Below are positions 15,249 to 41,456 of a DNA stretch of 43,160 nucleotides, piece after piece. The position numbers and the translations under genes were made by a program. The stretch lies in IMG/VR virus record IMGVR_UViG_2534681759_000012, positions 1-43,160 of that record; one strand, 5' to 3'. Below the pieces are notes generated by a model, which did no database searches, had not been told where the DNA came from, and worked only from the letters and a program-made list of their open reading frames with translations. Within the stretch, counting starts at the first letter, position 1. Each line of letters starts with the position of its first letter. Source of the stretch: a virus. Taxonomy: Duplodnaviria > Heunggongvirae > Uroviricota > Caudoviricetes.

Positions 15249-15261
15249 GATTAACTCTCTC

Positions 15262-18927: not shown

Positions 18928-19399
18928 GGTTGAATAGCTCCTTGATACGAGAGCGTCGCTTATCGCGATCTCCCTTATCAGGTGTCACGTCTTCAACTTG
19001 CGACTGCTCTTTGAGGCCCAAATCACGGGCGATGATGTTAGCGTTGAGAAGGTCAGCGGCTGCGCCAGAGAATTTCTGGTCGTAGATGATGTCTTCCGCT
19101 CGTGATGTGACGTCAGAAAAACCTTCCATTGACCGGAAGGTTCCCCATGTTTGCCTGGTGATATCAAGGAAGGTACACAATCCTGAAATAGTCATGGCTC
19201 GCATCTTAGGGACATTAGCCTTAATTATTTCTCCCTGATATGAAAATACCTTACCCTCCCATAGCGGGTTATCATCAGCCCACTCGAAGTATTCACAACA
19301 AGCAGCCCACAGCGCCTCAGGCGATTCGAATTTAGGATTTCGCCCATGACTACTGCGGGCCTCCCAAAATCGGTTGCCCTTTGGTGCTGCCATATTCAT
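18905..19399 (-). CDS. Terminase small subunit (gp3-like)
   Basis: 164 aa; sequence ([37 protein letters not shown]...[24 protein letters not shown]) closely matches the P22 gp3 sequence I recall. Confidence 0.85.
19105..19126 (-). other. Candidate pac site inside the small terminase gene
   Basis: Minus-strand GAAGGTTTTTCTGACGTCACAT lies at the position of the P22 pac site (GAAGACTTATCTGAGGTCGTTA) within gene 3, about 14 of 22 identical. Confidence 0.3.
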
Positions 19400-19400
19400 C

Positions 19401-19592
19401 TCACTTAGTTGTCATTTCTGGTCGTTGGCTCTTCATGCTTTCAATCAATGACTGCTTCAGCAATTCGAGTGTGCCAATCGCCTCACATACACTGATTTCA
19501 CCATAATCATGGATGACGCTTTCCAGCCGCTCGTATAGCTCTTGAGTAATTGGGAATTTCTTCTCCTTACCCAAATTGATTACGCGGCTCAC
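19401..19592 (-). CDS. Hypothetical protein (63 aa) upstream of terminase
   Basis: Compact ORF tightly packed against the small terminase start; no family recognised. Confidence 0.45.
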
Positions 19593-19593
19593 A

Positions 19594-19836
19594 TCATGCT
19601 CTGGTAGTGAACAGGTCTAACGCTTCCTTCGATTTACGCACCGCTTCGATAGTGCGGGTCGTGATATCTGAATTAGCGCCACCTGACTGGAAGTGAATTT
19701 TGAATAGCTCAAGCTTCAGTTCGTCAGTGCCAATGAATTGAAATGCTTCTTCTGCGGCTGCGTTCTGGTTCATGACCAGCTTGTAAATCTCTAACTGGAA
19801 TTTCTGTTCTTCAGTCATGGGAATAATCTCTGCCAT
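19594..19836 (-). CDS. Hypothetical protein (80 aa) upstream of terminase
   Basis: Compact ORF abutting the 63-aa ORF (2-nt spacing); no family recognised. Confidence 0.45.
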   Translation of the reverse strand: MAEIIPMTEEQKFQLEIYKLVMNQNAAAEEAFQFIGTDELKLELFKIHFQSGGANSDITTRTIEAVRKSKEALDLFTTRA

Positions 19837-20139
19837 TGTTGGCTCCGTTTATCCGTTAAAAGGGATATCAGTTAAGTTATCCCGTGTAGGGTATAAGCCA
19901 TTGTCGAGACCACTCATTGAATGGCCTCTGCAATAACCGATGTCTTTCCATCAGTCCGCCACCACAAAGAATCTTTTTTGCCATAAGGCAGGAGGTTCAT
20001 CTTTCAGTGGCTGCCAGTGTTATTTCCCCACTTACTGGATTGGGTTGTATCGCTGTACTGCCGTTAATTAGTGACCAGAAATTAACTCCGGTTTCATTAT
20101 CAAGCCAACCCGTAGATAGGCTTTGTAATGCCTACATGG

Positions 20140-20382
20140 TTAAATGATTTGCCAGTCTTCAGCCATCAGGTCGCCAATGGATGGAACCCATGTAGCAAGG
20201 CGGTTCTGTGAGTTTTTCAATACAAGCGTGTCATTGAAAGTTGGCTCGCCAACATATTCGCCAAAGCCATAACCCAACGCAGACGCTAATTTTTCCCCTT
20301 TCACGAGATAAACAAACTGGTCTTTCCCATTCCATCCTGCCCGCTGCAAACTTTTGCCCTGTTTTAACGCTTCCATGGCAAG
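20140..20382 (-). pseudogene. C-terminal fragment of IS-disrupted DUF2829 (Tad2-like) gene
   Basis: Frame stays open into the IS left end; the native part encodes ...LAMEALKQGKSLQRAGWNGKDQFVYL...ATWVPSIGDLMAEDWQII, a GW...DLLAEDW pattern I associate with DUF2829. Confidence 0.6.
20378..20382. repeat. Target-site duplication (GCAAG), left copy
   Basis: 5-bp direct repeat GCAAG immediately flanks both ends of the 1954-bp element (also at 22337..22341). Confidence 0.8.
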
Positions 20383-22329
<1,947 letters not shown>

Positions 22330-22336
22330 ATTGACA

Positions 22337-22341
22337 GCAAG
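22337..22341. repeat. Target-site duplication (GCAAG), right copy
   Basis: Direct repeat of 20378..20382 immediately after the IS right end. Confidence 0.8.
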
Positions 22342-22578
22342 GCCGAAACTTAGTCCTGATACCGGACGATAAGCCTTTTCGAATACTTCTTTTGGACTCC
22401 AGCTAACGTAGCCATCAAAGCGATCGGTGTTAGGTTTTCCGCCATCCAGATATTCAACCAGATAGCCTTCGTCCTCGCCGTTTTCTCCGGCAGGAAGCTG
22501 CCAGCCACGAAAATCGTTATATGCCTGTCTCGTCATCGGAAAGGCGTTAATCAGTTTTACGCCAATATGCTGGGTCAT
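22337..22578 (-). pseudogene. N-terminal fragment of IS-disrupted DUF2829 (Tad2-like) gene
   Basis: ORF MTQHIGVKLINAFPMTRQAYNDF...PVSGLSFGLA runs into the IS right end (last four residues and the stop are IS-encoded); frame and the TSD dipeptide LA join seamlessly to the fragment at 20140..20382. Confidence 0.6.
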
Positions 22579-22799
22579 AAAATTACCTATGGAGTTGGGA
22601 ATAAAAAACCCCGCGAATGCGAGGCTAAATCCTGGTATTTGTAATGACTGGCTCTTATCTCAACGCAGCCCCTTACCGCGCGCCAGATGCTCAATATCAA
22701 GCATCAGCAATGAGATGTTTAATCTGGATTCACTCCAGAAGTGATCATCACCCTGTCTACAGAGCCAGATGTGAAGGATGATGAGTAAAATTATCGCTA

Positions 22800-23237
22800 T
22801 CATCGAAGGCATTGCGTCCTGATGTACTCCTGCAGGTAGTTAACCTGCGCGGTTATCCTGTCGATTCCACTTCGGAGACGGTAATAATTGAGTTCAGCAT
22901 CTGCTGTAAGTCTTGGGCTTTCTCCATCGCCCATGCTGCTGGCTCCGGTCGTTGACTTTGCACAGGTGGCGGCGACTTGCAGGCGCTTACGACCAGCAGA
23001 AACATCAGCACGGAGACTTTCGATAGTCGCGTTAGCATCAGCAAGCTCCTTTGTGTATCTGGCGTCGAGTTCTGCTACATCACGTTGACGCTTCTGCATG
23101 TCAGCGATGATGGATGTGGCTTTATCGCGCTGTTCTTTATAGGTAATGGCGTTATCACGGTAATGATTAACAGCCCATGACAGACAGACGATGATGCAGA
23201 TAACCAGAGCGGAGATAATCGCGGTGACTCTGCTCAT
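22800..23237 (-). CDS. Rz: Spanin, inner-membrane subunit Rz (lambda-like N-terminus, divergent C-terminus)
   Basis: 145 aa; the first ~35 aa match lambda Rz ([34 protein letters not shown]), then the sequence diverges; follows the endolysin. Confidence 0.85.
22853..23044 (-). CDS. Rz1: Spanin, outer-membrane lipoprotein subunit Rz1 (embedded in Rz)
   Basis: 63-aa ORF in the +1 frame inside Rz, with signal-peptide-like hydrophobic N-terminus, lipobox-like VSAC and a Pro-rich segment. Confidence 0.65.
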
Positions 23238-23710
23238 ACCTCAATCTCTCTGACCGTTCCGCCAGCCTCTTTGAATTTTGCAATCAGGCTGTCAGCCTTA
23301 TGCTCGAACTGACCATAACCAGCGCCCGGCAGTGAAGCCCAGATATTGCTGCAACGGTCAATTGCCTGACGAATATCACCACGATCAATCATCGGCAAAG
23401 CGCCACGCTCCTTAATCTGCTGCAATGCCACAGCGTCCTGGCTTTTCGGAGAGAAGTCTTTCAGGCCAAGCTGCTTACGGTAGGCATCCCACCAATGGGA
23501 AAGAAGCTGGTAACGTCCGGCTGCTGTTGATTTGAGTTTTGGGTTTAGCGTGACAAGTTTGCGAGGGTGATCGGAGTAATCAGTGAATAGCTCTCCGCCT
23601 ACAATGACGTCATAACCATGATTTCTGGTTTTCTGTCGTCCGTTATCAGTTCCCTCTGACCACGCCAGCATATCGAGGAACGCCTTACGTTGATTATTGA
23701 TTTCCACCAT
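23234..23710 (-). CDS. R: Endolysin R (lytic transglycosylase), lambda-type
   Basis: 158 aa; sequence ([70 protein letters not shown]...) matches lambda R as recalled. Confidence 0.95.
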
Positions 23711-24017
23711 CTTCTACTCCGGCTTTTTTAGCAGCGAAGCGTTTGATAAGCGAACCAATCGAGTCAGTACCGATGTAGCCGATGAACACGCTCGTTATAT
23801 AAGCGAGATTGCTACTTAGTCCGGCGAAGTCGAGAAGGTCACGAATGAACCAGGCGATAATGGCGCACATCGTTGCGTCGATTACTGTTTTTGTAAACGC
23901 ACCGCCATTATATCTGCCGCGAAGGTACGCCATTGCAAACGCAAGGATTGCCCCGATGCCTTGTTCCTTTGCCGCGAGAATGGCGGCTAACAGGTCATGT
24001 TTTTCTGGCATCTTCAT
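23694..24017 (-). CDS. S: Holin S (class I, dual-start), lambda-type
   Basis: 107 aa beginning [64 protein letters not shown], matching lambda S107/S105 as recalled. Confidence 0.95.
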
Positions 24018-24551
24018 GTCTTACCCCCAATAAGGGGATTTGCTCTATTTAATTAGGAATAAGGTCGATTACTGATAGAACAAATCCAGGCTACTGTGTT
24101 TAGTAATCAGATTTGTTCGTGACCGATATGCACGGGCAAAACGGCAGGAGGTTGTTAGCGCAGCCTCTTGCCACCCGCTTTCACGAAGGTCATGTGTAGA
24201 AGTCCGCAGCATAACTATCACTGATGAATTCAGGATAGCCAGTGGCTACGGCCCAGTTTGGGTTGTGGCGGTCGGTGCTGAACTCCGACTTAATGACGAT
24301 AGGCGTGTACCGACGCCTCGTTTTACTTCCTCCGCTTTCACGGCTTCACCCTAGACCAGCTTTACGAAATCCTCGTAAACCTAACCGCGGCAGATATGAC
24401 CGGCACGGTGTGCCATATCACGGACCGGCGGGTGTCTCGTTCACCTGATTAACGCATCAGCCTGCGTATTCACCACAACGATAAGAGCACTGCGCGGCAC
24501 CTTTCACCAATTCCGCGAGGTCTGCGGGTTCAATGCACTTACCTGTTGTGC

Positions 24552-24584
24552 AAACAAAAAAGCCCCGACGTTTATGCCGAGGCT
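24552..24584 (-). terminator. Rho-independent terminator (lambda tR'-like, end of a 6S-type late leader RNA)
   Basis: Minus-strand AGCCUCG-loop-CGGGGCU hairpin followed by UUUUUU; flanking sequence resembles the lambda tR' region as recalled. Confidence 0.6.
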
Positions 24585-24689
24585 CTTACCTAATCTAGCC
24601 AGTATGTCGACCCTAAATATTATCGGCAACCGGGGAAATCAGGATTTCAATTTCGCTGCTCAGTTCGCTTTTGCTCCGAGCATATACGA

Positions 24690-24718
24690 AAAATACCACT
24701 TTCATTTCTCGGAAGCAA
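24690..24718 (-). promoter_or_regulatory. Candidate late promoter pR'
   Basis: Minus-strand TTGCTT, 17-bp spacer, TATTTT just downstream of the Q stop and upstream of the tR'-like terminator; assignment by position and weak consensus only. Confidence 0.25.
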
Positions 24719-24741
24719 CGCATTTACAAAATTATTTCAGT

Positions 24742-25356
24742 TCAGGCCGCTATCAATGGAAATTCTTTCTCCAATTCTCGTTTCATTGCATAAAACATTT
24801 CTGACTCCAGCACTTTCTCACACCACACCACTCGCTTACGACAATATTGAATATCAGCACCTGTTATATAAGAAATCATCCTGGCTATATCTTGCGTGCA
24901 ATTGCGATTGCAATATCGCTTAATAGCTACATCGCGGACGGGGCTTTCACGGTGAAAAGTCTTGACCATCACACGTTCAACGAAAGCCGCATCATCTGAT
25001 TCTTTGGCGAGAGTGATGATGTGGCTAAACGATGATTGAGGAATGACCAGTTCGCGAGCTTTCTTGTATAGCACATCTCCGCGCAGCCCATCTTCTTCGT
25101 ACAGGCGCATGACGACAGACTCTATCTGCTTAGCCTTGTCATCGCTCCACTGACTGCGAATCATCAGACGACCGATAACGTTAATTGCACCACCTGGAGA
25201 GCAATCTCCGGCATTAACCTTGCCCCATACCTGTAACATGTAATGAACCCATGCTTTCTGGCTAGAGTTGATGGTTTTCTTCGGGTGTCTCCATACGCGG
25301 CGAAAGTGCGCGTCATTAATGAAGTTAACCATGCTGAATACTGGAGTTAACCGCAT
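24742..25356 (-). CDS. Q: Late-gene antiterminator Q (non-lambda type)
   Basis: Position immediately upstream of the pR'/tR' region and lysis cassette; Cys-rich C-terminal motifs (YCNRNC, YCRKRVVWC); start placed at MRLTPVF, overlapping the stop of the upstream 47-aa ORF by 1 nt. Confidence 0.6.
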   Translation of the reverse strand: MRLTPVFSMVNFINDAHFRRVWRHPKKTINSSQKAWVHYMLQVWGKVNAGDCSPGGAINVIGRLMIRSQWSDDKAKQIESVVMRLYEEDGLRGDVLYKKARELVIPQSSFSHIITLAKESDDAAFVERVMVKTFHRESPVRDVAIKRYCNRNCTQDIARMISYITGADIQYCRKRVVWCEKVLESEMFYAMKRELEKEFPLIAA

Positions 25357-25499
25357 CAGACCTCCCATCCTTTGCAATGACACCACACTTCAAACATTCG
25401 TTTCACAACCTCACGGCAGTAGAAACCGCCAGTATCGCGGGTCAGATCGTAGCGATTGCCATAACGCTGGCGCATATATCGTTCGAATGCTTTGTTCAT
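25356..25499 (-). CDS. Small nin-region protein, YlcG-like (47 aa)
   Basis: ORF MNKAFERYMRQRYGNRYDLTRDTGGFYCREVVKRMFEVWCHCKGWEV whose start overlaps the rusA stop; same rusA-ylcG-Q arrangement as in the DLP12 prophage as recalled. Below the ORF-track length cutoff. Confidence 0.55.
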   Translation of the reverse strand: MNKAFERYMRQRYGNRYDLTRDTGGFYCREVVKRMFEVWCHCKGWEV

Positions 25500-25858
25500 A
25501 CGCTCTCCAGTTCGGTGATTTTTATTCCAAGCCGTCCGCCTGGTACTTTCACACCACGAATTACGCGAATGTCATCGAATTGCTCGTCGTCTTCCGCAAA
25601 TCCGGCGTGGATAAGGGAGTCGAGTAAACCTTTCAGGATATTATCGAGGTCGCGACGGCGGGAGTCTGGAACGTCTGCGATGACTTTGATGCGGAGTCGT
25701 GATTTGGTGAAAATGTCTAACTTGAGTTGGCGGATGATTTGCTGAACGTCTTTTCGGTATTTCTGGCCTTTATCGCTGATGTAGTATTGGCTTCCCCGTC
25801 TTCGCCAGTAGGTGTTCACCGACGGCGGGTAAGGAAGCACAAACTGATATTCGTTCAT
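25496..25858 (-). CDS. rusA: Holliday junction resolvase RusA
   Basis: 120 aa with RusA hallmarks (LPYPPSVNTYW..., DVPDSRRRDLDN). Confidence 0.9.
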   Translation of the reverse strand: MNEYQFVLPYPPSVNTYWRRRGSQYYISDKGQKYRKDVQQIIRQLKLDIFTKSRLRIKVIADVPDSRRRDLDNILKGLLDSLIHAGFAEDDEQFDDIRVIRGVKVPGGRLGIKITELESV

Positions 25859-26145
25859 GGCTTAATCTTCCCCTCCTTCAGCAGGATCGCCTGCGTCCTG
25901 ATCACGCCTTCGAGGTGATAAAGTCTGGCGTCTTTGTTGTCGAGATTATGGGTGCGTCGGTCGATTTCATCGTGACACGCGCTACAAGCCCATGCGCCGA
26001 TCAGGTCGTCAGGCTTCATTCCCGTTCCGCAAATTCCAGCCATCCGGTAATGTGCCAGAACTGTAGTTTCAGGGTTGCCATTGCATACGCCGTAAATACG
26101 TACCTGACATTCTCTGCCGCGCGCTTCTTTGCGTAGGTTAGCCAT
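25855..26145 (-). CDS. Nin-region Cys/His-rich protein, YbcO-like (DUF1364-type putative nuclease)
   Basis: 96 aa (ARGRECQVRIYGVCNGNPETTVLAHYR...ACSACHDEIDRRTH); lies upstream of rusA as ybcO does in DLP12, as recalled. Confidence 0.7.
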   Translation of the reverse strand: MANLRKEARGRECQVRIYGVCNGNPETTVLAHYRMAGICGTGMKPDDLIGAWACSACHDEIDRRTHNLDNKDARLYHLEGVIRTQAILLKEGKIKP

Positions 26146-26867
26146 TAAGCAGCCTCCCCTGTTACTTTCAGCATTCCGTTATCGAGCAGCTTTCTGGTCA
26201 GCCACTGTTGACCACGACCGGTGATTTTTGTGGTGAACGATATCTGTATTCCGTGATTTGTGTTGACCGCTGTTTCTTTCACTGTGAAATAGCCGCGATC
26301 CATATATTCCTGCATTGGCACATTGCGCCGGGAACCTGAAGCAATAAGGATTTTGTGATCGCGCATCCACGCAAACAGTTTGTTTGGACCAATTCCAACA
26401 ACCTTTGCAAAGTTTCCAATCAAAATTCCGCTGGCTTCGCCAACTCGATCGGCAAACTCAACTTTAGGTGCGGCAATTGCGAGCTGGTTTTCCAGTTGCA
26501 TTTTCTGCTCAGCAAGATCAGCAGCAAGGCGCAACGCTTCTGGTAGCGTTTTGGGGATATTAACCGCAGTTTCTTCAAGCTCTCGCCAACGGTCAACAAG
26601 ACGAGCGGTGAATTCCGGCGACAACTGGGCAACAACAACAATACTATCTCGCTTACCTTGTTCGCCTTCGAAGACGTAATGCTCGTACTGAACATTGAAC
26701 CCTAAGTTATTGATTCTTTCGGAAACCTCAATTTGAGGAAGCCGGATAACACCATTTTTAGCCAGCGTTTCGATGGTACGTTTCACATTGTCATGACGCT
26801 TACCCACCAACTCAGCGATTTCAATGCTTGTCATTTTGATGGCATTGCCATTTATTAACTCATTCAT
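26145..26867 (-). CDS. Phage antirepressor / Rha-family regulator with KilA-C-like C-terminal domain
   Basis: 240 aa; N-terminal Rha-type DNA-binding region (MTSIEIAELVGKRHDNVKRTIETL); C-terminal half resembles antirepressor C-terminal domains. Confidence 0.6.
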   Translation of the reverse strand: MNELINGNAIKMTSIEIAELVGKRHDNVKRTIETLAKNGVIRLPQIEVSERINNLGFNVQYEHYVFEGEQGKRDSIVVVAQLSPEFTARLVDRWRELEETAVNIPKTLPEALRLAADLAEQKMQLENQLAIAAPKVEFADRVGEASGILIGNFAKVVGIGPNKLFAWMRDHKILIASGSRRNVPMQEYMDRGYFTVKETAVNTNHGIQISFTTKITGRGQQWLTRKLLDNGMLKVTGEAA

Positions 26868-27036
26868 CGTCTTCTTCCTCGTACATTGAGCTATTCGGAT
26901 CGCTCATCAGTTCTGCGCAGCAGTGCTCACACACGTGAACTTCCAGCACATACAGCTTCTGACCGCAGTTAGCGCACGTTAAAGCTCGCTCGACGCTTTC
27001 TTTCTGGTATTGAAGGGATTGGGATGGGCTAAGCAT
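26860..27036 (-). CDS. ninF: NinF-like small zinc-ribbon protein
   Basis: Internal start [58 protein letters not shown] matches lambda NinF as recalled; two CxxC pairs. Confidence 0.65.
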   Translation of the reverse strand: MLSPSQSLQYQKESVERALTCANCGQKLYVLEVHVCEHCCAELMSDPNSSMYEEEDDE

Positions 27037-27436
27037 GGCTTTCACCATTAAAAAGTCGCTTGTAAGCATCAATATCTCGTTTTGCTTCACCAAGCTTTCG
27101 TCTTAATTCCATGTTTTCTGATTCAAGCTTTTCCATGTCTTGTTGGTATCGATCGCTGTGTTCTTTCCATGCTTTTCGATACGCCTTCATGTATGTCGTT
27201 TCGGCCTTTCTCTTTGCCTGACGAACAGCGTGATGGTTTTCTACAAACCACTCAGGGTCGTTAAATGCTGCTCTGGCGCATGTATACCAATAATTTGTTG
27301 CCTCCCTGTTTAGCCAATAAATACTGATAAATGGCAACCGGATAGACACCATTTTTCGTTGAGACTCTTTCTCGCCGAACATGTGCCCTTTTTTGATGCT
27401 AAGGCCAAATCCAGGTTGAATTAAAAGCATTGTCAT
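27029..27436 (-). CDS. Hypothetical nin-region protein (~135 aa)
   Basis: ORF between ninE and ninF with ATGA-type overlap to the ninE stop; basic coiled-coil C-terminus; no family recognised. Confidence 0.45.
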
Positions 27437-27609
27437 TTCCTCGCACGATGTCTTAGCCACCGGATATCCCACAGGTGAGCCGTGTAGTTGAAGGTTTTTA
27501 CGTCAGATTCTTTTGGGATTGGCTTGCGTTTATTTCTGGAGCGTTTCGTTGGAAGGTATTTGCAGTTTTCGCAGATTATGTCGGTGATACTTCGTCGCTG
27601 TCGTCTCAT
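27433..27609 (-). CDS. ninE: NinE-like protein
   Basis: Internal start [58 protein letters not shown] matches lambda NinE as recalled; the longer six-frame ORF uses an upstream TTG. Confidence 0.7.
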
Positions 27610-28133
27610 GCCGCCCTCCTGACGCCCTGCCCGATCGCCATCAATGCCGCTTTGGATACGGTAGTAAACATCCGTCGAGGACTGATGAACGGTCGCCAAA
27701 TCAGCAGCATTGAGCCTTTGCTGTTTCCCTTCTTCTCCAGCCCCGTCGATGGTTCGATAAAATTAATCCGTCCATCAGTGATAATGCGAACTTCGTCAAC
27801 GCTCTCCAGAGCCTTGCTGAACCATCCGACTGACATATCCTCTGGCACAAGCATCACTACCGTCTGTCGCTGTTGTATGCACTGCTCAGCGGCTTTTTCT
27901 ACCCACGGCCTGATATTGCTGTACGGTGGGTTATTCCAGATTGCACCGTGGCTTACCCACTCAGAATTGAGCGCGTCGTCGGCCTCAGTTAACCAGTGAG
28001 CGCACAGAGCATTTTTGTCGCTCGCTGCCGAATCCAGCCAGAATCCAAACTCAATATCCAGTGCATCAAAAAGCCAAAGCGGCGTTTGCCAGCAGTCCTT
28101 GTCGTGTGCTGGCGTATTTGATTTGATAGTCAT
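27606..28133 (-). CDS. DNA N6-adenine methyltransferase (phage Dam-like)
   Basis: NPPY catalytic motif ([14 protein letters not shown]) and N-terminal [21 protein letters not shown] typical of phage Dam-like MTases; start placed at MTIKSNTP with ATGA overlap to the ninB stop. Confidence 0.75.
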
Positions 28134-28570
28134 GCAGCCCGATCTCCCCATCGCGCTTTCCATTCGAGAGCCAGTCGCGCTTCGTCTGACCACTTAACGC
28201 CACGCTCTGTACCGAATGCCTGTATAAGCTCTAATAGCTCCGCAAATTCGCTTACACGCATCCTGCTGGTTGACTGGCCTATTACCACAAAGCCATTCCC
28301 GGCAAGGTTAGGAACAACATCCTGCTGCTTTAATGCTGCGGTAAACACACACTTCCAGCTTTCTGCATCCAGCCAGCGACCATGCCATTCAACCTGACGA
28401 GAGACGTCACCAAGGCAAGCCCAAAGCTTTCGATTCTGGTCTAAGCTGCGGTTGCGTTCCTGAATGGTTACTACGATTGGTTTGGTTGGGTCTGGAAGAA
28501 TTTGCTGTACCGCGTGAATAGCGTTTTGCTGATGTGCTGGGGATCGAATTTCAAAGGTTAGTTTTTTCAT
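28130..28570 (-). CDS. ninB: Recombination protein NinB (Orf family)
   Basis: 146 aa; sequence (MKKLTFEIRSPAHQQNAIHAVQQILPDPTKPIVVTIQERNRSLDQNRKLWACLGDV...) matches lambda NinB as recalled. Confidence 0.9.
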   Translation of the reverse strand: MKKLTFEIRSPAHQQNAIHAVQQILPDPTKPIVVTIQERNRSLDQNRKLWACLGDVSRQVEWHGRWLDAESWKCVFTAALKQQDVVPNLAGNGFVVIGQSTSRMRVSEFAELLELIQAFGTERGVKWSDEARLALEWKARWGDRAA

Positions 28571-28763
28571 GACTTCCCTCTCTAACAGATTTCAGGTTAT
28601 TCCACTCCGTTACCGCACTGCGATAATTTGCGGCCGCCACAGCGGCGTGGTTAGCGCAGTAGATTTGGCACCCGTTCTCCATGTCGAATATTGTCGGTGA
28701 TTTTCCGCATTTACATTTTTTGGCACGCGGTGCGTCTGAACACATTCCGTTAACGGTGTCCAT
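28551..28763 (-). CDS. Hypothetical Cys-rich small protein
   Basis: 70-aa ORF between helicase and ninB (CKCGK...CQIYCANH); overlaps the ninB start by ~20 nt; uncertain. Confidence 0.35.
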   Translation of the reverse strand: MDTVNGMCSDAPRAKKCKCGKSPTIFDMENGCQIYCANHAAVAAANYRSAVTEWNNLKSVREGSHEKTNL

Positions 28764-28847
28764 CAGGATCCCCCTCGTTCTTAATCCAATAAAAAAGGGC
28801 TACTGTGTAAATAGCCCCTGTTATTAGCTCAGTGATGTAGATGGTCA

Positions 28848-31328
28848 TCAGAATCCTCCTTTCTTCTTGGACTGCGGCTCCTCGCGTTCACGGCGGCGCA
28901 TTTCAGCAGACTGTTGGTCTGTGTCATAAATAGCGCCATTTGCCTGAATGCAATACACCGTGCCGGTATTGCCATGACGATTGAGACGAAGGATTAGTTC
29001 GGTTTCACCAGGTGGAACACTGTCATCAAAAGCACCTTCACGATGGATCCCCACCCAATAATCGCAATCCTGTTCAATCTGCCCTGTATCTCGTGAGTCA
29101 CTTGGTAATGGGCGTTTATTGGTTCGGCTTTCCAGTGCGCGGTTAAGCTGCGTCAGAAGCACAACAACGCAATCAAGCTCTTTGGCAAGGTTCTTCAGTC
29201 CTTTGGTGATCATGCCGTAAGCAAGGTCGTTGCGATCGGCCTTCTCAGCGGTCATTAGTGTCAGGTAATCGACCAGAATCATGCCAACACATCCTTTTTC
29301 TCGCTTGATTCGACGGCTTTCGCTGACGATTTGAGCCAGAGATAATCCCGGCGTGTCGTCGATGTAAAGCATGTCGATTTCACTCAAGCGATTGGCTGTT
29401 TCGATCGCCCTGTTGAAGTCACCATCGTAATCACCCTGATAGCCGTCATCGGCGTCATTTGTCGCCGGAAGGTAAAAAATATTCGGGTTAACACCAGACT
29501 TCTGCCCTACCAGTTTTTCCAGTATCTGGTCACCGGGCATTTCAAGGCTGAACATCAGAGCGGGCTTTTTCTCATGCACTGCGCAGTTGATTGCCATCTG
29601 GCTGTATAGCGTGGTGTTGTGGGTTAGAATGTATCCGTCAGTTGCATACAAATGTCTCTCGTGGGATACCATGATGCAAATGCACTCTTCACGTCCAATA
29701 TACTCAACCGACGTGATAACAGGCGCACTTGTTTTGATGCGTTTTGCAGTGAATTTTTGCTTCAGGCGTGGAGATTTTATGTGTGATAGAACCTCATCAG
29801 GCAACCTGATTGCGCAAATATGGGCATCCATACCTTTGCGCATTTCTCCCTTATAACTGAATTTCGGCTCCTGTTTGGTTGTCATACGACACACGCCACC
29901 AAGAGAATGCACCAGCCGCTTTACACCATCTGACAGGAACTTGCTTGCCGAGCTAAAGCGCAGGGCATTATTTCCTTCAACCCAACCATCGGTTTCAAGT
30001 AATCCGCATAGAACATCAATACGAGTTTGCTTATCAGCAGAAAAAATAATATCCGGGATAATTTTAATCTCTGACATCCGGCCGTAGATACCAAGCCGTT
30101 GCATAACCCGCGTAAGAGATAATTTGCGGCTAAACTTGTGAGATAGGGAGTAATCGCAGCCAGAAACATTTCTGACTTCAATATCGTCACCCACTTCAGA
30201 TCTTACTCGCTCAATGATGTATGGTTCCGTCATGCTGATTCGTGGCGTACCTGCAAGATTTCCATCGCCAAGTAACGCACCTAACAGCCATGGGCTAATC
30301 CCTAAATCAACAGGCAATCCGAAGTCACCGCTAATACCAGGAACATGAATGCGGCTTTGATAGCGAACGCATTCCATCATGTCCCGTAGGCGGCAGGTGT
30401 CTACAACATCAACGCCACCGGTAATACGGTTACTATGAATTTCCCACAAATGATCATCCGCGCAATCAACGGTTCTTCCGTCAGAGAACGTAACTCGGTA
30501 AATATCTCGCTCCCCTTGAGGAAAAACTCCAGACACGAATGATGGTTGTCCATCCACTGATGCTAGGGAATCTCCAACACATACGTCACGAAATGTTGTC
30601 CATGAACCATCAGCAAGCAAAATGCGTGAATTAAGCGGTTGCGCTTTCCCCATCTTAGGGCGAGCGCCAATGACAAACAGAGAGCCTTTCACCAGACCTT
30701 TCGGTGACAGCATCCTGTCCAGCGATGGGATCCCTGTGCTCATTCCTCGTTGTTCGCCTGACGGGTCAAATCGCTTCTCAAGGTCGCTAACCCAGTCTTC
30801 CATGACCTCACCAAATGAACGAAGGCCGCGACGCGATCCGGTTTTTGCATGGTCTGTCAGTTGCGTGAAAATCGACTGAATAGCTTCGTACTTCTGTGTT
30901 GCAGTCATTCCGTTGCGGGAATAGAGCAATTCCGTCGCTTCAGTCATGCGGTTGATGGCGTAGCGTTCCATTGCGGTTTCACGAACCTGCATTGCATAGG
31001 CAACGATGTTTGCTGCGCTTGGCGTGTTCTTTGCGATCTCAGCGATATAAGCAAAACCGCCAACAGACGCCGTTAACGATTTACGCTCCAGTTCATCGAA
31101 AAGCGTCAGGCCATCTACTGGCTTTTGCTCCCGGTGCATTCTGGTTATTTCTTCGAAAAGGATTTTGTGTGGTCGGCTGTAAAATGAGTCAGGCTTCAGC
31201 ATCGCCAGAACTTTCTGGACGCGCTCACTGCAGTCATCATCCAGAAGCAATCCACCAATCACCGCCTGCTCTGCCTCGATGCTATGGGGCGGCGCATAAA
31301 AATTATCGGTCATCGTGTTCACCCTCAC
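28848..31328 (-). CDS. Replicative DNA helicase (DnaB family) interrupted in-frame by an intein
   Basis: 826 aa; DnaB N-terminal domain (PHSIEAEQAVIGGLLLDD...), Walker A split as GARPKMGK / TTLYS by a 343-aa insertion, then DnaB motifs (LVDYLTLM, LLTQLNRALESR). Confidence 0.85.
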   Translation of the reverse strand: MRVNTMTDNFYAPPHSIEAEQAVIGGLLLDDDCSERVQKVLAMLKPDSFYSRPHKILFEEITRMHREQKPVDGLTLFDELERKSLTASVGGFAYIAEIAKNTPSAANIVAYAMQVRETAMERYAINRMTEATELLYSRNGMTATQKYEAIQSIFTQLTDHAKTGSRRGLRSFGEVMEDWVSDLEKRFDPSGEQRGMSTGIPSLDRMLSPKGLVKGSLFVIGARPKMGKAQPLNSRILLADGSWTTFRDVCVGDSLASVDGQPSFVSGVFPQGERDIYRVTFSDGRTVDCADDHLWEIHSNRITGGVDVVDTCRLRDMMECVRYQSRIHVPGISGDFGLPVDLGISPWLLGALLGDGNLAGTPRISMTEPYIIERVRSEVGDDIEVRNVSGCDYSLSHKFSRKLSLTRVMQRLGIYGRMSEIKIIPDIIFSADKQTRIDVLCGLLETDGWVEGNNALRFSSASKFLSDGVKRLVHSLGGVCRMTTKQEPKFSYKGEMRKGMDAHICAIRLPDEVLSHIKSPRLKQKFTAKRIKTSAPVITSVEYIGREECICIMVSHERHLYATDGYILTHNTTLYSQMAINCAVHEKKPALMFSLEMPGDQILEKLVGQKSGVNPNIFYLPATNDADDGYQGDYDGDFNRAIETANRLSEIDMLYIDDTPGLSLAQIVSESRRIKREKGCVGMILVDYLTLMTAEKADRNDLAYGMITKGLKNLAKELDCVVVLLTQLNRALESRTNKRPLPSDSRDTGQIEQDCDYWVGIHREGAFDDSVPPGETELILRLNRHGNTGTVYCIQANGAIYDTDQQSAEMRRREREEPQSKKKGGF
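29616..30644 (-). other. Intein with LAGLIDADG homing-endonuclease motifs inside the helicase P-loop
   Basis: Residues 229..571 of the helicase: starts with Ala (AQPLNSRILLADGSW...), ends ...YILTHN followed by Thr; two LAGLIDADG-like motifs (LGALLGDGNL and LCGLLETDGWVEG); removing it restores GARPKMGKTT. Confidence 0.75.
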
Positions 31329-32193
31329 GAACTTTCAGGTAGGTATTATCGTTAAGCAGGAAATCAAATCCCTTTTTGTGCCAGACGGTTCCGCGCTGAT
31401 GGTTTGGGCGCTCTTCGAACATCCATCGGCAATTTTCGCCTACGTAGCTCAAATAATTTCTCCAGTCCTGCATCGTGAACCCATGCCCGTCAAGCTGGCG
31501 GGTTATCACTCCGGCTTTGCGCCAGAACGTTCGGATCTGGTTTTTACGCTTGTCATTCAGTGCGCGGATTTTTGGCGCTTCAGGAAGGATTTCGTGGTAA
31601 GCATCGACAACATCCTGACAGCTAACGGAAGGTTTTTTCTTGTCAGACTTTTTGTCTGCTGCGGTACTCTCTAATACGTCAGTATTAGAGATATTATTTA
31701 TATTATTGTTTATGGACAACCGTTGGACAACCGTTGGACAATCTCCGCTGAGAGCCGCGCCATTACTGGTGTTTGCGTTGGACAACCGTTGGACAACCGT
31801 TGGACAATTTTTTGCCTGAAAATCGTCATATTTAACGATTGTAAACAGGCTAAATTTCTTCCCCATCGAGCAAATATTAAGCATCCCTTTCGACTCAAAA
31901 GTCCGCAATAAGCTCCGAACTTTGTTGTCGGGGATGAATGTTTCTCTGACCAGCGACGGGCGTCCAGTTATCATCTGACCGCGATCAACAGTTATCGGCC
32001 CGATATCCGTATTGACGACAGTAGATTCGTGATTAGCCTTGAGGATTAAGTGAAGCCAAAGATGTACTGCCTGAGAGTCCTTATAGAGCCTGCTGTCCAT
32101 AAACTGGCGGTGTATAGAGACATACCCCATACTGGATGCCTCCTGATGTTGTACAGGGTTATGCCTGTAATCAGCTAACTTAACGACGCCCAT
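31303..32193 (-). CDS. Replication initiator protein (lambda O-like)
   Basis: Position upstream of and overlapping the helicase gene; contains the iteron cluster and AT-rich tract inside its coding sequence (as ori-lambda sits in gene O); the true start may be internal. Confidence 0.7.
   Translation of the reverse strand: MGVVKLADYRHNPVQHQEASSMGYVSIHRQFMDSRLYKDSQAVHLWLHLILKANHESTVVNTDIGPITVDRGQMITGRPSLVRETFIPDNKVRSLLRTFESKGMLNICSMGKKFSLFTIVKYDDFQAKNCPTVVQRLSNANTSNGAALSGDCPTVVQRLSINNNINNISNTDVLESTAADKKSDKKKPSVSCQDVVDAYHEILPEAPKIRALNDKRKNQIRTFWRKAGVITRQLDGHGFTMQDWRNYLSYVGENCRWMFEERPNHQRGTVWHKKGFDFLLNDNTYLKVREGEHDDR
31711..31806. repeat. Origin of replication iterons (two clusters of about three tandem 11-bp GGACAACCGTT units) with adjacent AT-rich tract
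   Basis: Direct tandem repeats at 31713..31740 and 31775..31806 separated by ~35 bp, flanked by an AT-rich stretch (31683..31710), all within the O-like gene. Confidence 0.75.
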
Positions 32194-32375
32194 GTTTCAC
32201 TCCTGCTTTGGCTAGTCTGTAAACACCAACAAGGCGCTCTGCGAACGCCCTGTTATTTGCTGCGGCTACCACTAATCCCTCAGGTGAATCAGGGTGTCGA
32301 ATCTCTTCTTTTTCCTGGTATTTCTTACGACGTTTTGTCATAATTACTCCTGTGGATTGATCCAGTCTTTCTACA

Positions 32376-32657
32376 TCAGGCCTCGAAGAATTCGCCGTTC
32401 TTCGGGGCTTTTTCTTTTGTCAGGTAATCGGCAATCCGCTTAGTCAATTCAGCCATTTCATCGTCTTCGATTCCGTATTCCAGAACAGCCAGCATCATGC
32501 TTACCTGCGAGAAGAAACCATTCTTCCATCGGCTTACCTGATATTCAGGAACCCCCATTGCTCGAGCGAATGCCTTCTGCCCCATCAGTGCCAGTTTGTT
32601 CAGCAAGGCTGACTCGATGCGAGCCGCTTTCTTGCTTTTAGTTGCAATAGTACCCAT
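32376..32657 (-). CDS. cII: Transcriptional activator CII-like
   Basis: 93 aa; homologous to lambda CII in the HTH region (ARIESALLNK...QVSRWK...SMMLAVLEYG); located between cro/nutR and the O-like gene. Confidence 0.8.
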   Translation of the reverse strand: MGTIATKSKKAARIESALLNKLALMGQKAFARAMGVPEYQVSRWKNGFFSQVSMMLAVLEYGIEDDEMAELTKRIADYLTKEKAPKNGEFFEA

Positions 32658-32733
32658 AGATAATTTCCTTAATGATTAGATAGAGTTGGCTTCGCAAAGA
32701 AACGCAAAACCATAGAGATTTGTTTCTGGTAAT

Positions 32734-32765
32734 GCCCTTTTTCAGGGCGGGGATGTGTAAGAGCG
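32734..32765 (-). promoter_or_regulatory. nutR site (boxA and boxB)
   Basis: Minus-strand boxA CGCTCTTACAC and boxB hairpin GCCCTGAAAAAGGGC, matching lambda nutR as recalled, just downstream of cro. Confidence 0.8.
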
Positions 32766-32773
32766 TTAATAAC

Positions 32774-33004
32774 TTAAGCGGCCATTAATTCAGGCCAGAT
32801 GCTTTCCCAATCAACCGGATGAAGGTCTTTGCGAGTCACTTCACCATTGCTGAACTTCTCAATCAGAACACAAAGTGCTGCGCCCAATTCATGATTACGG
32901 CTAAGTGCTTTCCTCAAATAGCCGATAGAAGTTCCGCACTTGGTGGCAAATTCTCTCTGCTCTTCCAGTGAAAGGGAGTTCAGATACAAGCGGAGTTCTT
33001 CCAT
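32774..33004 (-). CDS. cro: Cro-like repressor (HTH)
   Basis: 76-aa HTH protein transcribed divergently from cI across an operator region. Confidence 0.7.
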   Translation of the reverse strand: MEELRLYLNSLSLEEQREFATKCGTSIGYLRKALSRNHELGAALCVLIEKFSNGEVTRKDLHPVDWESIWPELMAA

Positions 33005-33038
33005 TTGCTATCTCCTTCCCGTTGTTGAATAAGATGAG

Positions 33039-33094
33039 TTTACCTGTAGGTAAAAAGCAAATCAATACCCATAGGTTATTTACCGGCAGGTAAT
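33039..33094. promoter_or_regulatory. Right operator region OR (at least two TTACC-N4-GGTAA sites) with divergent pRM/pR
   Basis: Inverted-repeat sites TTTACCTGTAGGTAAA (33039..33054) and ATTTACCGGCAGGTAAT (33078..33094) between the cro and cI starts. Confidence 0.65.
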
Positions 33095-33112
33095 CAAAGA
33101 TAGAATTAAATC

Positions 33113-33799
33113 ATGGATAAATACGAACAAAGACGACTAAGGCTGATAGAGATAAGAGACCGATTCTGTAATGGAAAGGCCTCAGAGTTGGCTCGTCGAA
33201 TAGAAAGGGAACCATCATACGTTTCCAGAATGCTGTATCCGGAAGGAAAAAGCGGAAAAAAACGCATTGCTGACGATATGATGGAACTAATTGAAAAATC
33301 TTTTAATCTCCCACGCGGATGGATGGACATGCTTGCAGATGGTAAAGCTGGAGCTACGGACCATCTTGAGTTTGCGGGTAACGTTCGTGCGGGTTTTGTT
33401 CCGGTAATTGGTGAAGCCGTTTTGGGAGTTGATGGCTCAGTGGATATGATTGAATTCAGATCCGGTTGGTTAAGCATCTACAGCGGCGATAAAGATGCTT
33501 ACGGTCTGAAGGTTAAGGGTGACAGCATGTGGCCAAGGATTCAGTCAGGAGAATATGTTGTTATTGAACCAAATACGCCAGTACATCCAGGTGATGAAGT
33601 CTTTGTAAGGACCAAAGACGGTCACAACATGATAAAGATCATGAACAAAACAAGAGACGGTGATTATCAGTTTAGTAGCATAAACAGTGATCACCGCCCA
33701 ATCACTCTTCCTGTTGAAGAAGTTGATAAAATGCATTTTGTTTCAGCTATTGTGAAACACACCAGGTACGTAGACCAGGACGATCTGCCAAAAGTTTGA
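33113..33799 (+). CDS. cI: Prophage repressor CI (HTH plus LexA-like S24 autopeptidase domain)
   Basis: 228 aa; N-terminal HTH (ASELARRIEREPSYVSRML); C-terminal S24-type motifs (KVKGDSMWPRIQSGEYVVIE, KIMNK); not lambda immunity. Confidence 0.85.
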   Translation: MDKYEQRRLRLIEIRDRFCNGKASELARRIEREPSYVSRMLYPEGKSGKKRIADDMMELIEKSFNLPRGWMDMLADGKAGATDHLEFAGNVRAGFVPVIGEAVLGVDGSVDMIEFRSGWLSIYSGDKDAYGLKVKGDSMWPRIQSGEYVVIEPNTPVHPGDEVFVRTKDGHNMIKIMNKTRDGDYQFSSINSDHRPITLPVEEVDKMHFVSAIVKHTRYVDQDDLPKV

Positions 33800-34110
33800 G
33801 GATAAAGCAGCAAATGTTTATACCCGGCATAGTAGTCGCTGTTGTAATCATCTGCTTCATATGGGCAAAGTTATCTCCTGTAAGCTCTAAGCATACAGCT
33901 GAACTCATGAGGAAGAAGAATCTTATACATGAGGCAGAATCGATAATTAAAAAGTTCAAAGGCATGTCATACGACGACATGTCATCAGAGCAGATTGCTA
34001 TGTATAAATGCGCCATTGAGCGCCTTGACTACTTAAACGGACTCAAACCCAAACACACCCCAGTAGAATCAAAATTGCCGCAATGGCCAAGCAATCCAAA
34101 TAGCTTCTGA
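33796..34110 (+). CDS. Small single-pass membrane protein co-transcribed with cI (in the lambda rexAB position)
   Basis: 104 aa with one N-terminal TM helix (FIPGIVVAVVIICFIWAKL); start overlaps the cI stop; followed by a strong terminator before OL/pL. Confidence 0.6.
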   Translation: MRIKQQMFIPGIVVAVVIICFIWAKLSPVSSKHTAELMRKKNLIHEAESIIKKFKGMSYDDMSSEQIAMYKCAIERLDYLNGLKPKHTPVESKLPQWPSNPNSF

Positions 34111-34121
34111 CATCTCCTTTC

Positions 34122-34143
34122 AGCCCGCAAAGCGGGCTTTTTT
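34122..34143 (+). terminator. Rho-independent terminator ending the cI operon (tImm-like)
   Basis: AGCCCGC-AAA-GCGGGCT hairpin followed by TTTTT, 12 bp after the 104-aa ORF stop. Confidence 0.8.
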
Positions 34144-34206
34144 ATATCAATCCAAAAAATTAATTACCTGAAAATTCAAGCAGGTAAACTCTCACATCAA
34201 TTTTAT

Positions 34207-34248
34207 TTACCTGCAGGTATAGACAGGGGTTTTACCTGTAGGTATATT
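34207..34248 (+). promoter_or_regulatory. Left operator OL sites overlapping candidate pL
   Basis: Operator repeats TTACCTGCAGGTAT (34207..34220) and TTACCTGTAGGTAT (34232..34245), same half-sites as OR; candidate -35 TAGACA (34220..34225) and -10 TATATT (34243..34248) directed toward N. Confidence 0.55.
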
Positions 34249-34288
34249 TTAAGCCATCAGCAGGACGCACTGACCACCATGAAGGTGA

Positions 34289-34319
34289 CGCTCTTAAAAA
34301 TTAAGCCCTGAAGAAGGGC
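34289..34319 (+). promoter_or_regulatory. nutL site (boxA and boxB)
   Basis: boxA CGCTCTTAA and boxB hairpin GCCCTGAAGAAGGGC, matching lambda nutL as recalled, between pL and N. Confidence 0.85.
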
Positions 34320-34587
34320 AGCATTCAAAGCAGAAGGCTTTGGGGTGTGGTGAAGCCAGCTAGTCACTGGCAAGTGCTTACCTACTGTTGAGCGGTGAAG
34401 CGCTCCCAACGCTAGCAATAGCGTGGACGAGATGGGGAGCCGCGGGCGATAAGGCCGCCATAACGCGCACGTTGTCGCATGGAAAAATCGCTGGGGTGCC
34501 GGTTATACCCCTCCGAATGAGACTCAACAAGCTGGAGCTAGACTACCAGCCACCACACCGCCAAAGCTAACTGACAGGAGAATCCAG

Positions 34588-34914
34588 ATGGATGCACAAA
34601 CACGCCGCCGCGAACGTCGCGCAGAGAAACAGGCTCAATGGAAAGCAGCAAATCCCCTGTTGGTTGGGGTAAGCGCAAAACCAGTTAACCGCCCTATTCT
34701 CTCGCTGAATCGCAAACCGAAATCACGAGTAGAAAGCGCACTGAATCCGATAGACCTTACGGTGCTGGCTGAATACCACGAACAGATTGAAAGCAACCTG
34801 CAACGTATTGAGCGCAAGAATCAGCGCACATGGTACAGCAAGCCACGCAGTGAAATGGGTGTGACTTGTGTTGGTCGCCAGAAAATGAAATTAGGCAGCA
34901 AACCACTTATTTGA
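34588..34914 (+). CDS. N: Antiterminator N (lambda-type)
   Basis: 108 aa beginning MDAQTRRRERRAEKQAQWKAANPLLVGVSAKPVNRPILSLNRKPKSRVESALNPIDLTVLAEYH, matching lambda N as recalled; C-terminus diverges slightly. Confidence 0.9.
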   Translation: MDAQTRRRERRAEKQAQWKAANPLLVGVSAKPVNRPILSLNRKPKSRVESALNPIDLTVLAEYHEQIESNLQRIERKNQRTWYSKPRSEMGVTCVGRQKMKLGSKPLI

Positions 34915-34992
34915 GGTGAGATATGGAAGAAGAATTTGAAGAGTTCGAAGAGCATCCGCAGGATGTGATGGAACAATACCAGGACTATCCTT

Positions 34993-35193
34993 ATGACTAC
35001 TACTATTGATAAAAATCAATGGTGTGGACAATTCAAGCGATGCAATGGATGCAAGCTGCAATCGGAATGCATGGTTAAGCCTGAAGAAATGTTTCCTGTA
35101 ATGGAAGATGGGAAATATGTCGATAAATGGGCAATACGAACGACGGCAATGATTGCCAGAGAACTTGGTAAACAGAACAACAAGGCTGCCTGA
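34993..35193 (+). CDS. Hypothetical Cys-rich small protein (66 aa)
   Basis: ORF downstream of N with CxxxxxxCxxC...C pattern; no family recognised. Confidence 0.4.
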   Translation: MTTTIDKNQWCGQFKRCNGCKLQSECMVKPEEMFPVMEDGKYVDKWAIRTTAMIARELGKQNNKAA

Positions 35194-35251
35194 TGGTGGC
35201 CTTTATTTTTGTCCGTAAATAATTTCATGCTTATTACAATCAAGGTGATAT

Positions 35252-35701
35252 ATGGAAGAACAAGCAAACAAGATTCTCGTAGAACTACTGCAAAAAGCCA
35301 GTAATGGAATAGACGCGGCTGTTTCATTTAGCCAGGCACAGATTCCTGATGTTGTTCATCAGTTGCTGCTATGGAATATGGTTGACAGTCTGATTAAAAC
35401 ATTAATGGCCATTCTAACAATCCCACTGGTTTTCTGGTTTATGAAGAAGCAGTGCCAAAGAGTTGAGACAGGTAAAATCGGTGATGAAGGATATTCATGG
35501 GAGAAAGGAAATCCCAAATACAGGCCGACAATGGTTTGGGATAGCAAAGGTGATATTAATCTTCTTATCATGCCATTGGTTGGAGTTTTGACTCTGTGGG
35601 GGATTTTTATTATTGGTGTAGTAACCAATATGACTTGGTTAAAAATTTGGCTGGCCCCAAAGCTTTACCTTATCGAATATGCAGCATCATTGGTTAAGTA
35701 A
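35252..35701 (+). CDS. Two-helix membrane protein in the early-left operon (possible superinfection-exclusion SieB-like position)
   Basis: 149 aa with two hydrophobic segments (LIKTLMAILTIPLVFWF and LLIMPLVGVLTLWGIFIIGVV); lies a few genes downstream of N, where lambda and P22 carry sieB; function by position only. Confidence 0.4.
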   Translation: MEEQANKILVELLQKASNGIDAAVSFSQAQIPDVVHQLLLWNMVDSLIKTLMAILTIPLVFWFMKKQCQRVETGKIGDEGYSWEKGNPKYRPTMVWDSKGDINLLIMPLVGVLTLWGIFIIGVVTNMTWLKIWLAPKLYLIEYAASLVK

Positions 35702-35760
35702 TTTCAGGCCGCATAGTCGGACTTTATTTTTGGCATAAACAACAGAATAAACACTGCACT

Positions 35761-35788
35761 GTGTATTCATTCCAACGAGTGAATACAC
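35761..35788. promoter_or_regulatory. 12-bp inverted repeat (GTGTATTCATTC-CAAC-GAGTGAATACAC), possible protein-binding site or hairpin
   Basis: Near-perfect palindrome (11 of 12) in a 240-bp non-coding gap of the early-left operon; no following T-run. Confidence 0.3.
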
Positions 35789-36192
35789 GGAGCAATGTCG
35801 CTCGTAACTAAACAGGAGCCGACTTGTTCTGATTATTGGAAATCTTCTTTGCCCTCCGATGTGGGGGCCTTTTTATATACATACCAATAACGCTTCACTC
35901 GAGGCGTTTTCGTTATGCAATCAAACAGAAGGAGCATCCTATGCAACAGTTCGCTATTGCAGGGGCGGCATCGGTTCGCCCTTTCAACCCGATTTTATCG
36001 GTACAGCATTCACGAAAAAATATTTTAACCGGAGCAGACTTTAAACAACCAAGAATGAAAAGTTTGCTCGAAAAGCTTTGGGATATTTTGAAACAACAAG
36101 GCCGTCCATGAGTTTTACGGATAACTGGTCAGACGAAGAATTCATTCGTCAGATGAACAAAATGCTCAATCAGCACAAAGAACAGGAGAAAG

Positions 36193-37878: not shown

Positions 37879-37889
37879 CGGTATCGACT

Positions 37890-39698: not shown

Positions 39699-39699
39699 T

Positions 39700-41383: not shown

Positions 41384-41456
41384 AATAGCGGGTAAAATAT
41401 TTTTCACATCTAAAAAACACCATTCCAATCAATCCCCTGCCGCTTCAAGTAGATGT

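Follow-up and report, generated by a model that had tools for sequence, protein, structure and literature searches.

The Dam proteins of phages T1 and HP1 (orf13) are the founders of the protein families PF05869 and TIGR01712. Both are reported to be specific for GATC, and neither has a separate recognition domain. T1 is a virulent phage, and the dam gene of HP1 comes after a MazG-like gene where the early operon ends. The alpha-class enzymes E. coli Dam, T4 Dam and DpnM are reported to have the same target; they are N6-adenine methyltransferases with a (D/N)PPY motif, and T4 Dam is an orphan phage enzyme. The closest described system is M.EcoVT2Dam (BAA94133), the dam product of the Stx phage VT2-Sakai, which is annotated as similar to 933W L0094, HP1 Orf13 and T1 M.T1. 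GATC is the known target of this enzyme of prophage VT2-Sa, according to the passage of PMC6602927 that cites Radlinska and Bujnicki (2001). The first 30 kb of the VT2-Sakai record contain only one annotated dam, situated between a NinB homologue and ninE with 4-nt overlaps. Phi24B, Min27 and Stx2-converting phage II carry the identical protein.

Here, we focus on a dam gene in a P22/Sf6-like lambdoid prophage of E. coli, contained in a stretch of 43,160 nucleotides that was analysed as a whole and is called the window below. The gene occupies 27606..28133 on the minus strand, and its product of 175 residues is identical to M.EcoVT2Dam at 175 of 175 positions. The feature is already known: the same protein was cloned and characterised in 2001 and is routinely named by the NCBI annotation pipeline. 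The phage background differs from that of VT2-Sakai, the carrier in the window being a podovirus-type prophage of the P22/Sf6 kind with KplE1/Sf6-type integration and not an Stx phage.

Two profile models place the protein in its family, both with scores above the curated cut-offs. Pfam PF05869 ("Dam") matches over profile positions 1-167 of 169 with 218.4 bits (cut-off 28.1), and the NCBIfam equivalog model TIGR01712 ("phage N-6-adenine-methyltransferase") over positions 1-165 of 165 with 265.9 bits (cut-off 97.05). The first-pass annotation had read an NPPY methyltransferase from the DNA, and this motif is found at residues 68-71 (codons AAC CCA CCG TAC, 27921..27932, minus strand) of an intact reading frame. 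In an alignment with six phage homologues of 30-48% identity (T1 Dam, HP1 Dam and proteins of Proteus, Aggregatibacter, Lactococcus and Gordonia phages), the residues D13, D34, N41, N68, P69 and P70 do not vary, nor do several further positions, and NPPY is also invariant in 44 enterobacterial homologues. D13 and D34, the N-terminal aspartates of the DxWxTP and LDxAA motifs, are kept as well. The alignment was inspected for loss of catalytic motifs and all of them are intact. Taken from sequence, it is well supported that the gene encodes an AdoMet-dependent DNA N6-adenine methyltransferase of the phage HP1/T1/VT2 "Dam" family. The AlphaFold model (44 homologues; mean pLDDT 83, pTM 0.83) consists of one alpha/beta domain, in which residues 1-4 and 45-52 are modelled with low confidence. 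The protein is thus predicted to be a small single-domain methyltransferase of the class I fold that lacks a separate recognition domain, and its length falls within the range of about 140-240 residues typical of the family.

The enzyme had been described as "Dam-like", which fits its reported target, GATC, and does not fit its descent. PF05869 is the sole Pfam hit of the protein at E<=0.01, and PF02086, the family of E. coli Dam, T4 Dam and DpnM, does not match it. A phmmer search against all PDB chains, which include these three enzymes, returned an unrelated chain as the best hit (E 0.24). The alpha-class architecture, in which an AdoMet motif, an inserted target-recognition domain and DPPY are combined, is not seen in the protein. 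With T4 Dam, the enzyme shares its status as an orphan of phage origin. T1 Dam and HP1 Dam are 32-34% identical to the window protein, have D13, D34, N41 and N-P-P-Y in common with it and resemble it in the missing recognition domain, although T1 Dam has an N-terminal extension of 44 residues and an internal insertion in comparison and the genes of both phages lie in contexts unlike that in the window. Among known structures, the predicted fold is matched best by gamma-class enzymes of the M.TaqI type (also M.BseCI, MmeI, CamA, type I HsdM and PCIF1). These share an NPPY-type catalytic motif with the window enzyme but exceed it in length by a factor of 1.4 to 4 and contain recognition domains, which are missing from it. 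Hence, the label "Dam-like" should not be taken to imply homology to E. coli Dam.

At the nucleotide level, the gene differs from its VT2-Sakai counterpart at nine positions, and all nine differences are synonymous (9 synonymous to 0 non-synonymous). The NinB proteins flanking dam in the window prophage and in VT2-Sakai are highly divergent. Because the differences within dam are silent while the adjacent NinB alleles differ strongly, dam is evidently a conserved mosaic module under purifying selection. On the strength of its identity to M.EcoVT2Dam, of the secondary citation for that enzyme and of the precedent within the family, the window enzyme is predicted to methylate the adenine of GATC.

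The gene is tightly packed between its neighbors. Upstream lies ninB (28130..28570, minus strand; PF05772, 184 bits), which encodes an Orf-family recombination mediator. The methyltransferase ATG (28133..28131) overlaps the ninB TGA (28132..28130) in an ATGA at 28130..28133 on the minus strand, and a GGAG is located 10 nt 5' of the methyltransferase ATG. The translational coupling to ninB proposed in the first-pass annotation is in keeping with this junction. Downstream, the methyltransferase TGA (27608..27606) overlaps the ATG of ninE (27609..27607) in a second ATGA at 27606..27609 on the same strand, with an AGGAGG 5 nt 5' of the ninE start. The product of ninE (27433..27609, minus strand) matches the NCBIfam NinE family NF007245 with an E-value of 5.8e-09, a score below the curated cut-off, and its identity is supported by the same gene order annotated in VT2-Sakai and in E. 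coli genomes. This 3' junction, which had been left out of the earlier description, has the same ATGA form as the 5' junction. Judged by this layout, ninB, dam and ninE form a tightly overlapping run in which translation of dam would be coupled at both ends. Moreover, the methyltransferase reading frame is not a chance ORF because at least 1000 contigs encode exactly this protein.

The prophage around this run has virion genes of the P22 type (coat, scaffold, gp7, injectosome translocase, tail needle and the head-binding domain of the tailspike), immunity and early genes (S24-peptidase repressor, CII and N) and a replication gene for a DnaB-type helicase. The integrase gene is found at 1..1152, and a torI-type excisionase gene at 41183..41383 adjoins the host gene cscB, a layout that we take to be the KplE1/Sf6-type arrangement. 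An integrase at the apparently wrong end might point to a chimeric window. This was rejected, since a torI-type excisionase lies at the opposite end and 8.6 kb on the right are identical to a public E. coli contig: window positions 34534..43160 correspond base for base, over 8627 bases, to AQFA01000039.1 (E. coli GCA_000355255.2, locus L009). An insertion of the IS21 family lies in the late operon, and the prophage may no longer be able to complete a lytic cycle. No Rfam family reached its gathering score in a scan of the whole window, and ARAGORN detected no tRNA or tmRNA there.

Within this arrangement, dam lies on the rightward early strand, downstream of cII, of the replication genes and of a terminator-like hairpin with a T run at 28795..28819 (minus strand). 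This site falls where lambda has tR2, with the helicase gene on one side and the nin region on the other; it is a consensus match only, of a kind no more frequent in the window than in shuffled sequence, and its presumed function follows from its position. A consensus scan of 24500..29000 found five promoter-like sites against 5.1 expected, and thus none above chance before dam. The placement in a delayed-early operon agrees with the strand and with the nin region in which the gene is found, and by the standard lambdoid scheme, including N-dependent antitermination, dam would be a delayed-early gene. Its message would be part of the rightward early transcript once antitermination has taken place, so that the enzyme is expected to be made after induction or infection and not in the repressed lysogen. 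Data on Phi24B point in the same direction. The Phi24B dam (clone CM2) is listed as 100% identical to that of VT2-Sakai, its transcript changes significantly on norfloxacin induction, and it is among four of the five tested CMAT genes whose pattern of expression was connected with the lytic cycle.

Taken together, dam very probably encodes a GATC methylase identical to M.EcoVT2Dam that is expressed at the lytic stage and whose role would be to top up GATC methylation on replicating phage DNA. Endogenous host Dam is reported in the retron-Sen2 literature to be limiting for DNA of higher copy number. The phage enzyme might supplement the rate-limiting host Dam on fast-replicating phage genomes, and the genomes that are packaged would then be fully methylated at GATC. 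Full methylation would protect the progeny DNA from GATC endonucleases that are blocked by methylation (DpnII/MboI type), and the enzyme might also shield GATC sites that are otherwise unmethylated from cleavage by MutH. On paper, the activity is redundant in a dam+ host. As far as we found, the literature contains no measured fitness benefit of a dam gene to a lambdoid phage in Dam-proficient hosts. Because host Dam writes the same GATC mark, the methylome of a dam+ lysogen cannot reveal the phage enzyme, and the authors of PMC6602927 met with the same masking by host Dam.

The base composition of the prophage bears on this role. GATC occurs 83 times in the prophage proper, where trinucleotide frequencies predict 188 sites (observed/expected 0.44), while the ratio is 0.84 in the inserted IS21-family element and 0.83 in the host flank. 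The first 30 kb of VT2-Sakai have a ratio of 0.55 and phage T1 one of 0.78. GATC avoidance in enterobacteriophages has been attributed in part to cutting by MutH in the sources named in a passage of PMC5014478 (Deschavanne and Radman, 1991; McClelland, 1984), and the twofold depletion in the prophage is consistent with this published selection against GATC. GATC is depleted despite the resident methylase. Either the pressure is not relieved by the enzyme, or modules circulate among phages with and without dam.

A second solitary methyltransferase had been proposed at 38534..39295 (plus strand) in the early-left operon, and it is confirmed as an intact beta-class N6/N4 enzyme of 253 residues. 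It matches PF01555 with 103.1 bits against a cut-off of 26.7 (positions 1-220 of 221), and its motif order is that of the beta class, with DIPY at residues 27-30, a central region and MGSGTT at residues 201-206. The DIPY of motif IV is encoded by GAT ATT CCA TAT at 38612..38623 (plus strand). A small upstream ORF (50 residues in locus L009, ending at 38537) overlaps the start of the gene in an ATGA at 38534..38537 on the same strand. Sequence matches in the PDB are M.MboIIA and DpnA, with which DIPY aligns to DPPY and FTMGSGTTG to the AdoMet-binding motif. Among seven phage homologues (an alignment that comprises proteins of Klebsiella, Xanthomonas, Flavobacterium, Synechococcus, Enterococcus and Brucella phages of 38-47% identity), D27, P29, Y30, G31 and M201-GSG are invariant. 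The isoleucine in DIPY might suggest a dead active site; this was rejected, since members of the subfamily have L, I or P at the second position, whereas D, P, Y and G do not vary.

The second enzyme has no close characterised relative that we could find. NCBIfam models of the CcrM and YhdJ type reach only its C-terminal AdoMet-binding region and stay far below their cut-offs. M.EcoGI and M.EcoGII from prophages of E. coli O104:H4 resemble it in the beta-class order, the location in a prophage and the missing nuclease partner. M.EcoGII is longer, however (349 against 253 residues), and the second enzyme belongs to a different subfamily, in which its nearest phage relatives are 38-49% identical to it. 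Of 5426 complete E. coli genomes, 18 carry its gene, 12 of them on plasmids (the two listed are of 97 kb). The exact sequence is present on seven contigs and a near-identical one in a single phage record, that of the 99.6-kb phage JL22. The second methyltransferase is thus much rarer than dam, and the same slot is filled by other small genes in related prophages.

As an independent orphan, the second enzyme presumably protects a motif different from GATC. The same leftward operon also carries ral (restriction alleviation; 34993..35193, plus strand), recognized by PF11058 on the identical gene in locus L009. In sum, the prophage appears to hold three counter-restriction functions related to methylation: dam, the second methylase and Ral. 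A broader reading, which we regard as unlikely, is that dam, the rare beta-class methylase with a possibly new specificity and Ral make up a layered kit of methylation-based counter-defence, in which the value of dam would lie in protection from MutH or GATC-sensing attack and not from classical restriction. If this were true, a twofold depletion of GATC that persists alongside a resident methylase would be a sign of ongoing conflict.

The first-pass annotation had left a choice between anti-restriction and epigenetic roles for these orphan enzymes. An anti-restriction role of dam is retained as probable, and an epigenetic one is unlikely considering the repressor-controlled operon and the expression of Phi24B dam linked to the lytic cycle. 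An epigenetic regulator would be expressed from the prophage and would alter the expression of host or prophage genes or stabilise lysogeny. In favor of this, the Dam protein was detected with a lysogen-specific antiserum in cultures of Phi24B lysogens, and the authors of that study speculated that the enzyme might supplement host Dam, which is needed for stable lysogeny of 933W. The same study, however, ties dam expression to the lytic cycle, i.e., to the subpopulation that is induced spontaneously. Moreover, in the window the gene follows the replication genes of the rightward operon, in a region where promoter-like sites are no more numerous than expected, and the host already methylates GATC, which leaves little room for extra methylation as a signal. 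We therefore consider a regulatory function in the lysogen quite unlikely.

A further alternative places the main value of dam in a network of defense and counter-defense, where the enzyme would evade functions that sense GATC or hemimethylation or, as a liability, would trigger abortive infection. Over-expressed Dam, including that of phage P1, triggers the retron-Sen2 toxin/antitoxin by methylating a GATC site in the msDNA, and phage Dcm likewise triggers retron Ec86. The presence of Ral and a second methylase in the same prophage also suggests an investment in methylation-based counter-defense. The Dam proteins tested with retrons were, however, of the EcoDam and P1 types, and we found no link between PF05869 enzymes and retrons. 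Such a role would add to the supplementation of host Dam on replicating DNA rather than replace it, and as the main value of the gene it is very unlikely.

It is more improbable still that dam is a decaying or inactive passenger that is kept only by hitch-hiking with the nin mosaic and has lost its methylating activity. This possibility gains something from the redundancy with host Dam, from the IS in the late operon and from the persisting avoidance of GATC. It is at odds with a reading frame of full length in which all family-invariant residues are present, with the exclusively synonymous substitutions relative to VT2-Sakai dam and with the wide occurrence of both protein (at least 1000 contigs) and gene (1566 of 5426 complete E. 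coli genomes). In addition, the identical protein is reported to be active in the part of the literature on M.EcoVT2Dam cited above.

Finally, dam might be one half of a restriction-modification system. Downstream of dam follow ninE, two unassigned ORFs of 147 and 77 residues, the latter cysteine-rich, an antirepressor (KilAC and Rha), YbcO (25855..26145, minus strand) and RusA (25496..25858, minus strand). Beyond RusA, an ORF of 214 residues in the position of the late antiterminator has no Pfam hit. The second methyltransferase is surrounded by RecT, Gp157, DUF2737, the 50-residue ORF, Ead/Ea22, DUF551 and DUF4752, and the rest of the window consists of virion, lysis, IS and host genes. The first-pass annotation had stated that neither enzyme has a restriction partner, and this stands: a cognate endonuclease was looked for, and no restriction endonuclease adjoins either methyltransferase or was detected among the approximately 50 window ORFs scanned. 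The scan took in most window ORFs of at least 90 residues; the matches were to ordinary phage, IS and host genes, and the remaining ORFs were not nuclease-like. PADLOC matched the two methyltransferases only, dam with its "orphan methyltransferase" models and the second enzyme with type II methyltransferase models, and found no defense-system match for YbcO, the 147-residue ORF, a membrane ORF of 441 residues and five other unassigned ORFs. The prophage DLP12 of E. coli K-12 has ybcO and rusA and is not known to carry this methylase. A cognate endonuclease in the form of YbcO, RusA or another prophage gene is barely credible: YbcO is named a "putative nuclease" in Pfam, RusA is an endonuclease and both genes lie on the same strand 1.5-2.5 kb downstream of dam, but RusA is a Holliday-junction resolvase, the scanned ORFs and PADLOC offer no partner, and neither gene can be the partner of dam because VT2-Sakai carries the identical dam with neither of them annotated in its nin region.

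The preferred reading, a lytic-stage GATC methylase, concerns a gene that is widespread. Of 50,697 phage records, 424 contain its DNA; homologues of its protein occur in 2134 phage records, and the 90%-identity cluster to which the protein belongs has 2325 members. HK97, HK544, Sf101, mEp506 and many Stx phages also carry the gene. Thus, the finding of dam in the window is correct and ordinary. In the complete E. coli genomes (about 29% of which have it), the gene is annotated as "phage N-6-adenine-methyltransferase" and is present in up to five copies each.

The prophage proper, taken as positions 1..41500 of the window minus the insertion sequence at 20413..22320, contains 83 GATC sites against 188 expected from trinucleotide frequencies, an observed/expected ratio (O/E) of 0.44 and thus an approximately twofold under-representation. 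Among the 16 palindromic tetramers, counted over the whole window, CTAG alone is more depleted. The avoidance persists despite the phage-encoded GATC methylase, a PF05869 'Dam'-family protein. No GATC depletion was found in the insertion sequence (O/E 0.84) or in the host flank (O/E 0.83), and the former, an IS21-family element, has a normal density of 5.2 GATC per kb, unlike the phage DNA around it. This element carries the genes for IstA (20469..21491), an rve-domain transposase, and the ATPase IstB (21488..22270; 373 bits), both on the plus strand. It lies within the late operon but on the opposite strand, where it separates the lysis gene Rz from the gene for the small terminase, and it may render the prophage defective.

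The distant Aggregatibacter phage S1249 encodes a PF05869 methylase with 30% identity, at 183..683 of the S1249 locus compared and immediately 5' of ninB, which runs from 690 onwards. The methylase-NinB adjacency thus recurs, albeit in reversed order: the methylase precedes ninB in S1249, whereas it follows ninB in the window. A further counter-restriction gene, ral (restriction alleviation; PF11058, 66 aa), lies on the plus strand at 34993..35193, directly 3' of N in the leftward operon; Ral is the prophage's third methylation-related anti-restriction function. Of 5426 complete E. coli genomes, just 18 carry the second methylase gene (38534..39295, plus strand), which encodes a beta-class enzyme. 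Twelve copies are plasmid-borne (the two plasmids listed are 97 kb), and the 99.6-kb phage JL22 also has the gene. Its presence on plasmids and in JL22 indicates that the gene is exchanged between lambdoid prophages and elements of plasmid size. The protein exists in 242-aa and 253-aa variants, which are distinguished by the ea22 junction.

The integrase gene (1..1152, plus strand) and a torI-type excisionase gene (41183..41383, plus strand) occupy opposite ends of the prophage, the arrangement of the KplE1/Sf6/HK620-type recombination module. On its right the prophage is flanked by the host gene cscB (41913..43160, minus strand), for a sucrose transporter, and positions 34534..43160 are identical to contig AQFA01000039.1 of E. 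coli assembly GCA_000355255.2.

Between the integrase and tailspike genes, a site that holds genes for O-antigen conversion in related phages, a polytopic membrane protein of 441 aa (1567..2892, plus strand) matches neither Pfam nor PADLOC. A family match is likewise absent for two minus-strand ORFs, one of 214 aa (24742..25386) located where late antiterminator Q would be encoded and one of 147 aa (27029..27472) between ninE and a 77-aa cysteine-rich ORF. The annotated GTG start of the latter overlaps ninE, and hence the true start is probably internal. In the 826-aa replicative DnaB-type helicase (28848..31328, minus strand), the DnaB_C match falls in two separate stretches and residues 439-485 weakly match LAGLIDADG_3, which together suggest that the helicase is interrupted by an intein bearing a homing-endonuclease domain.
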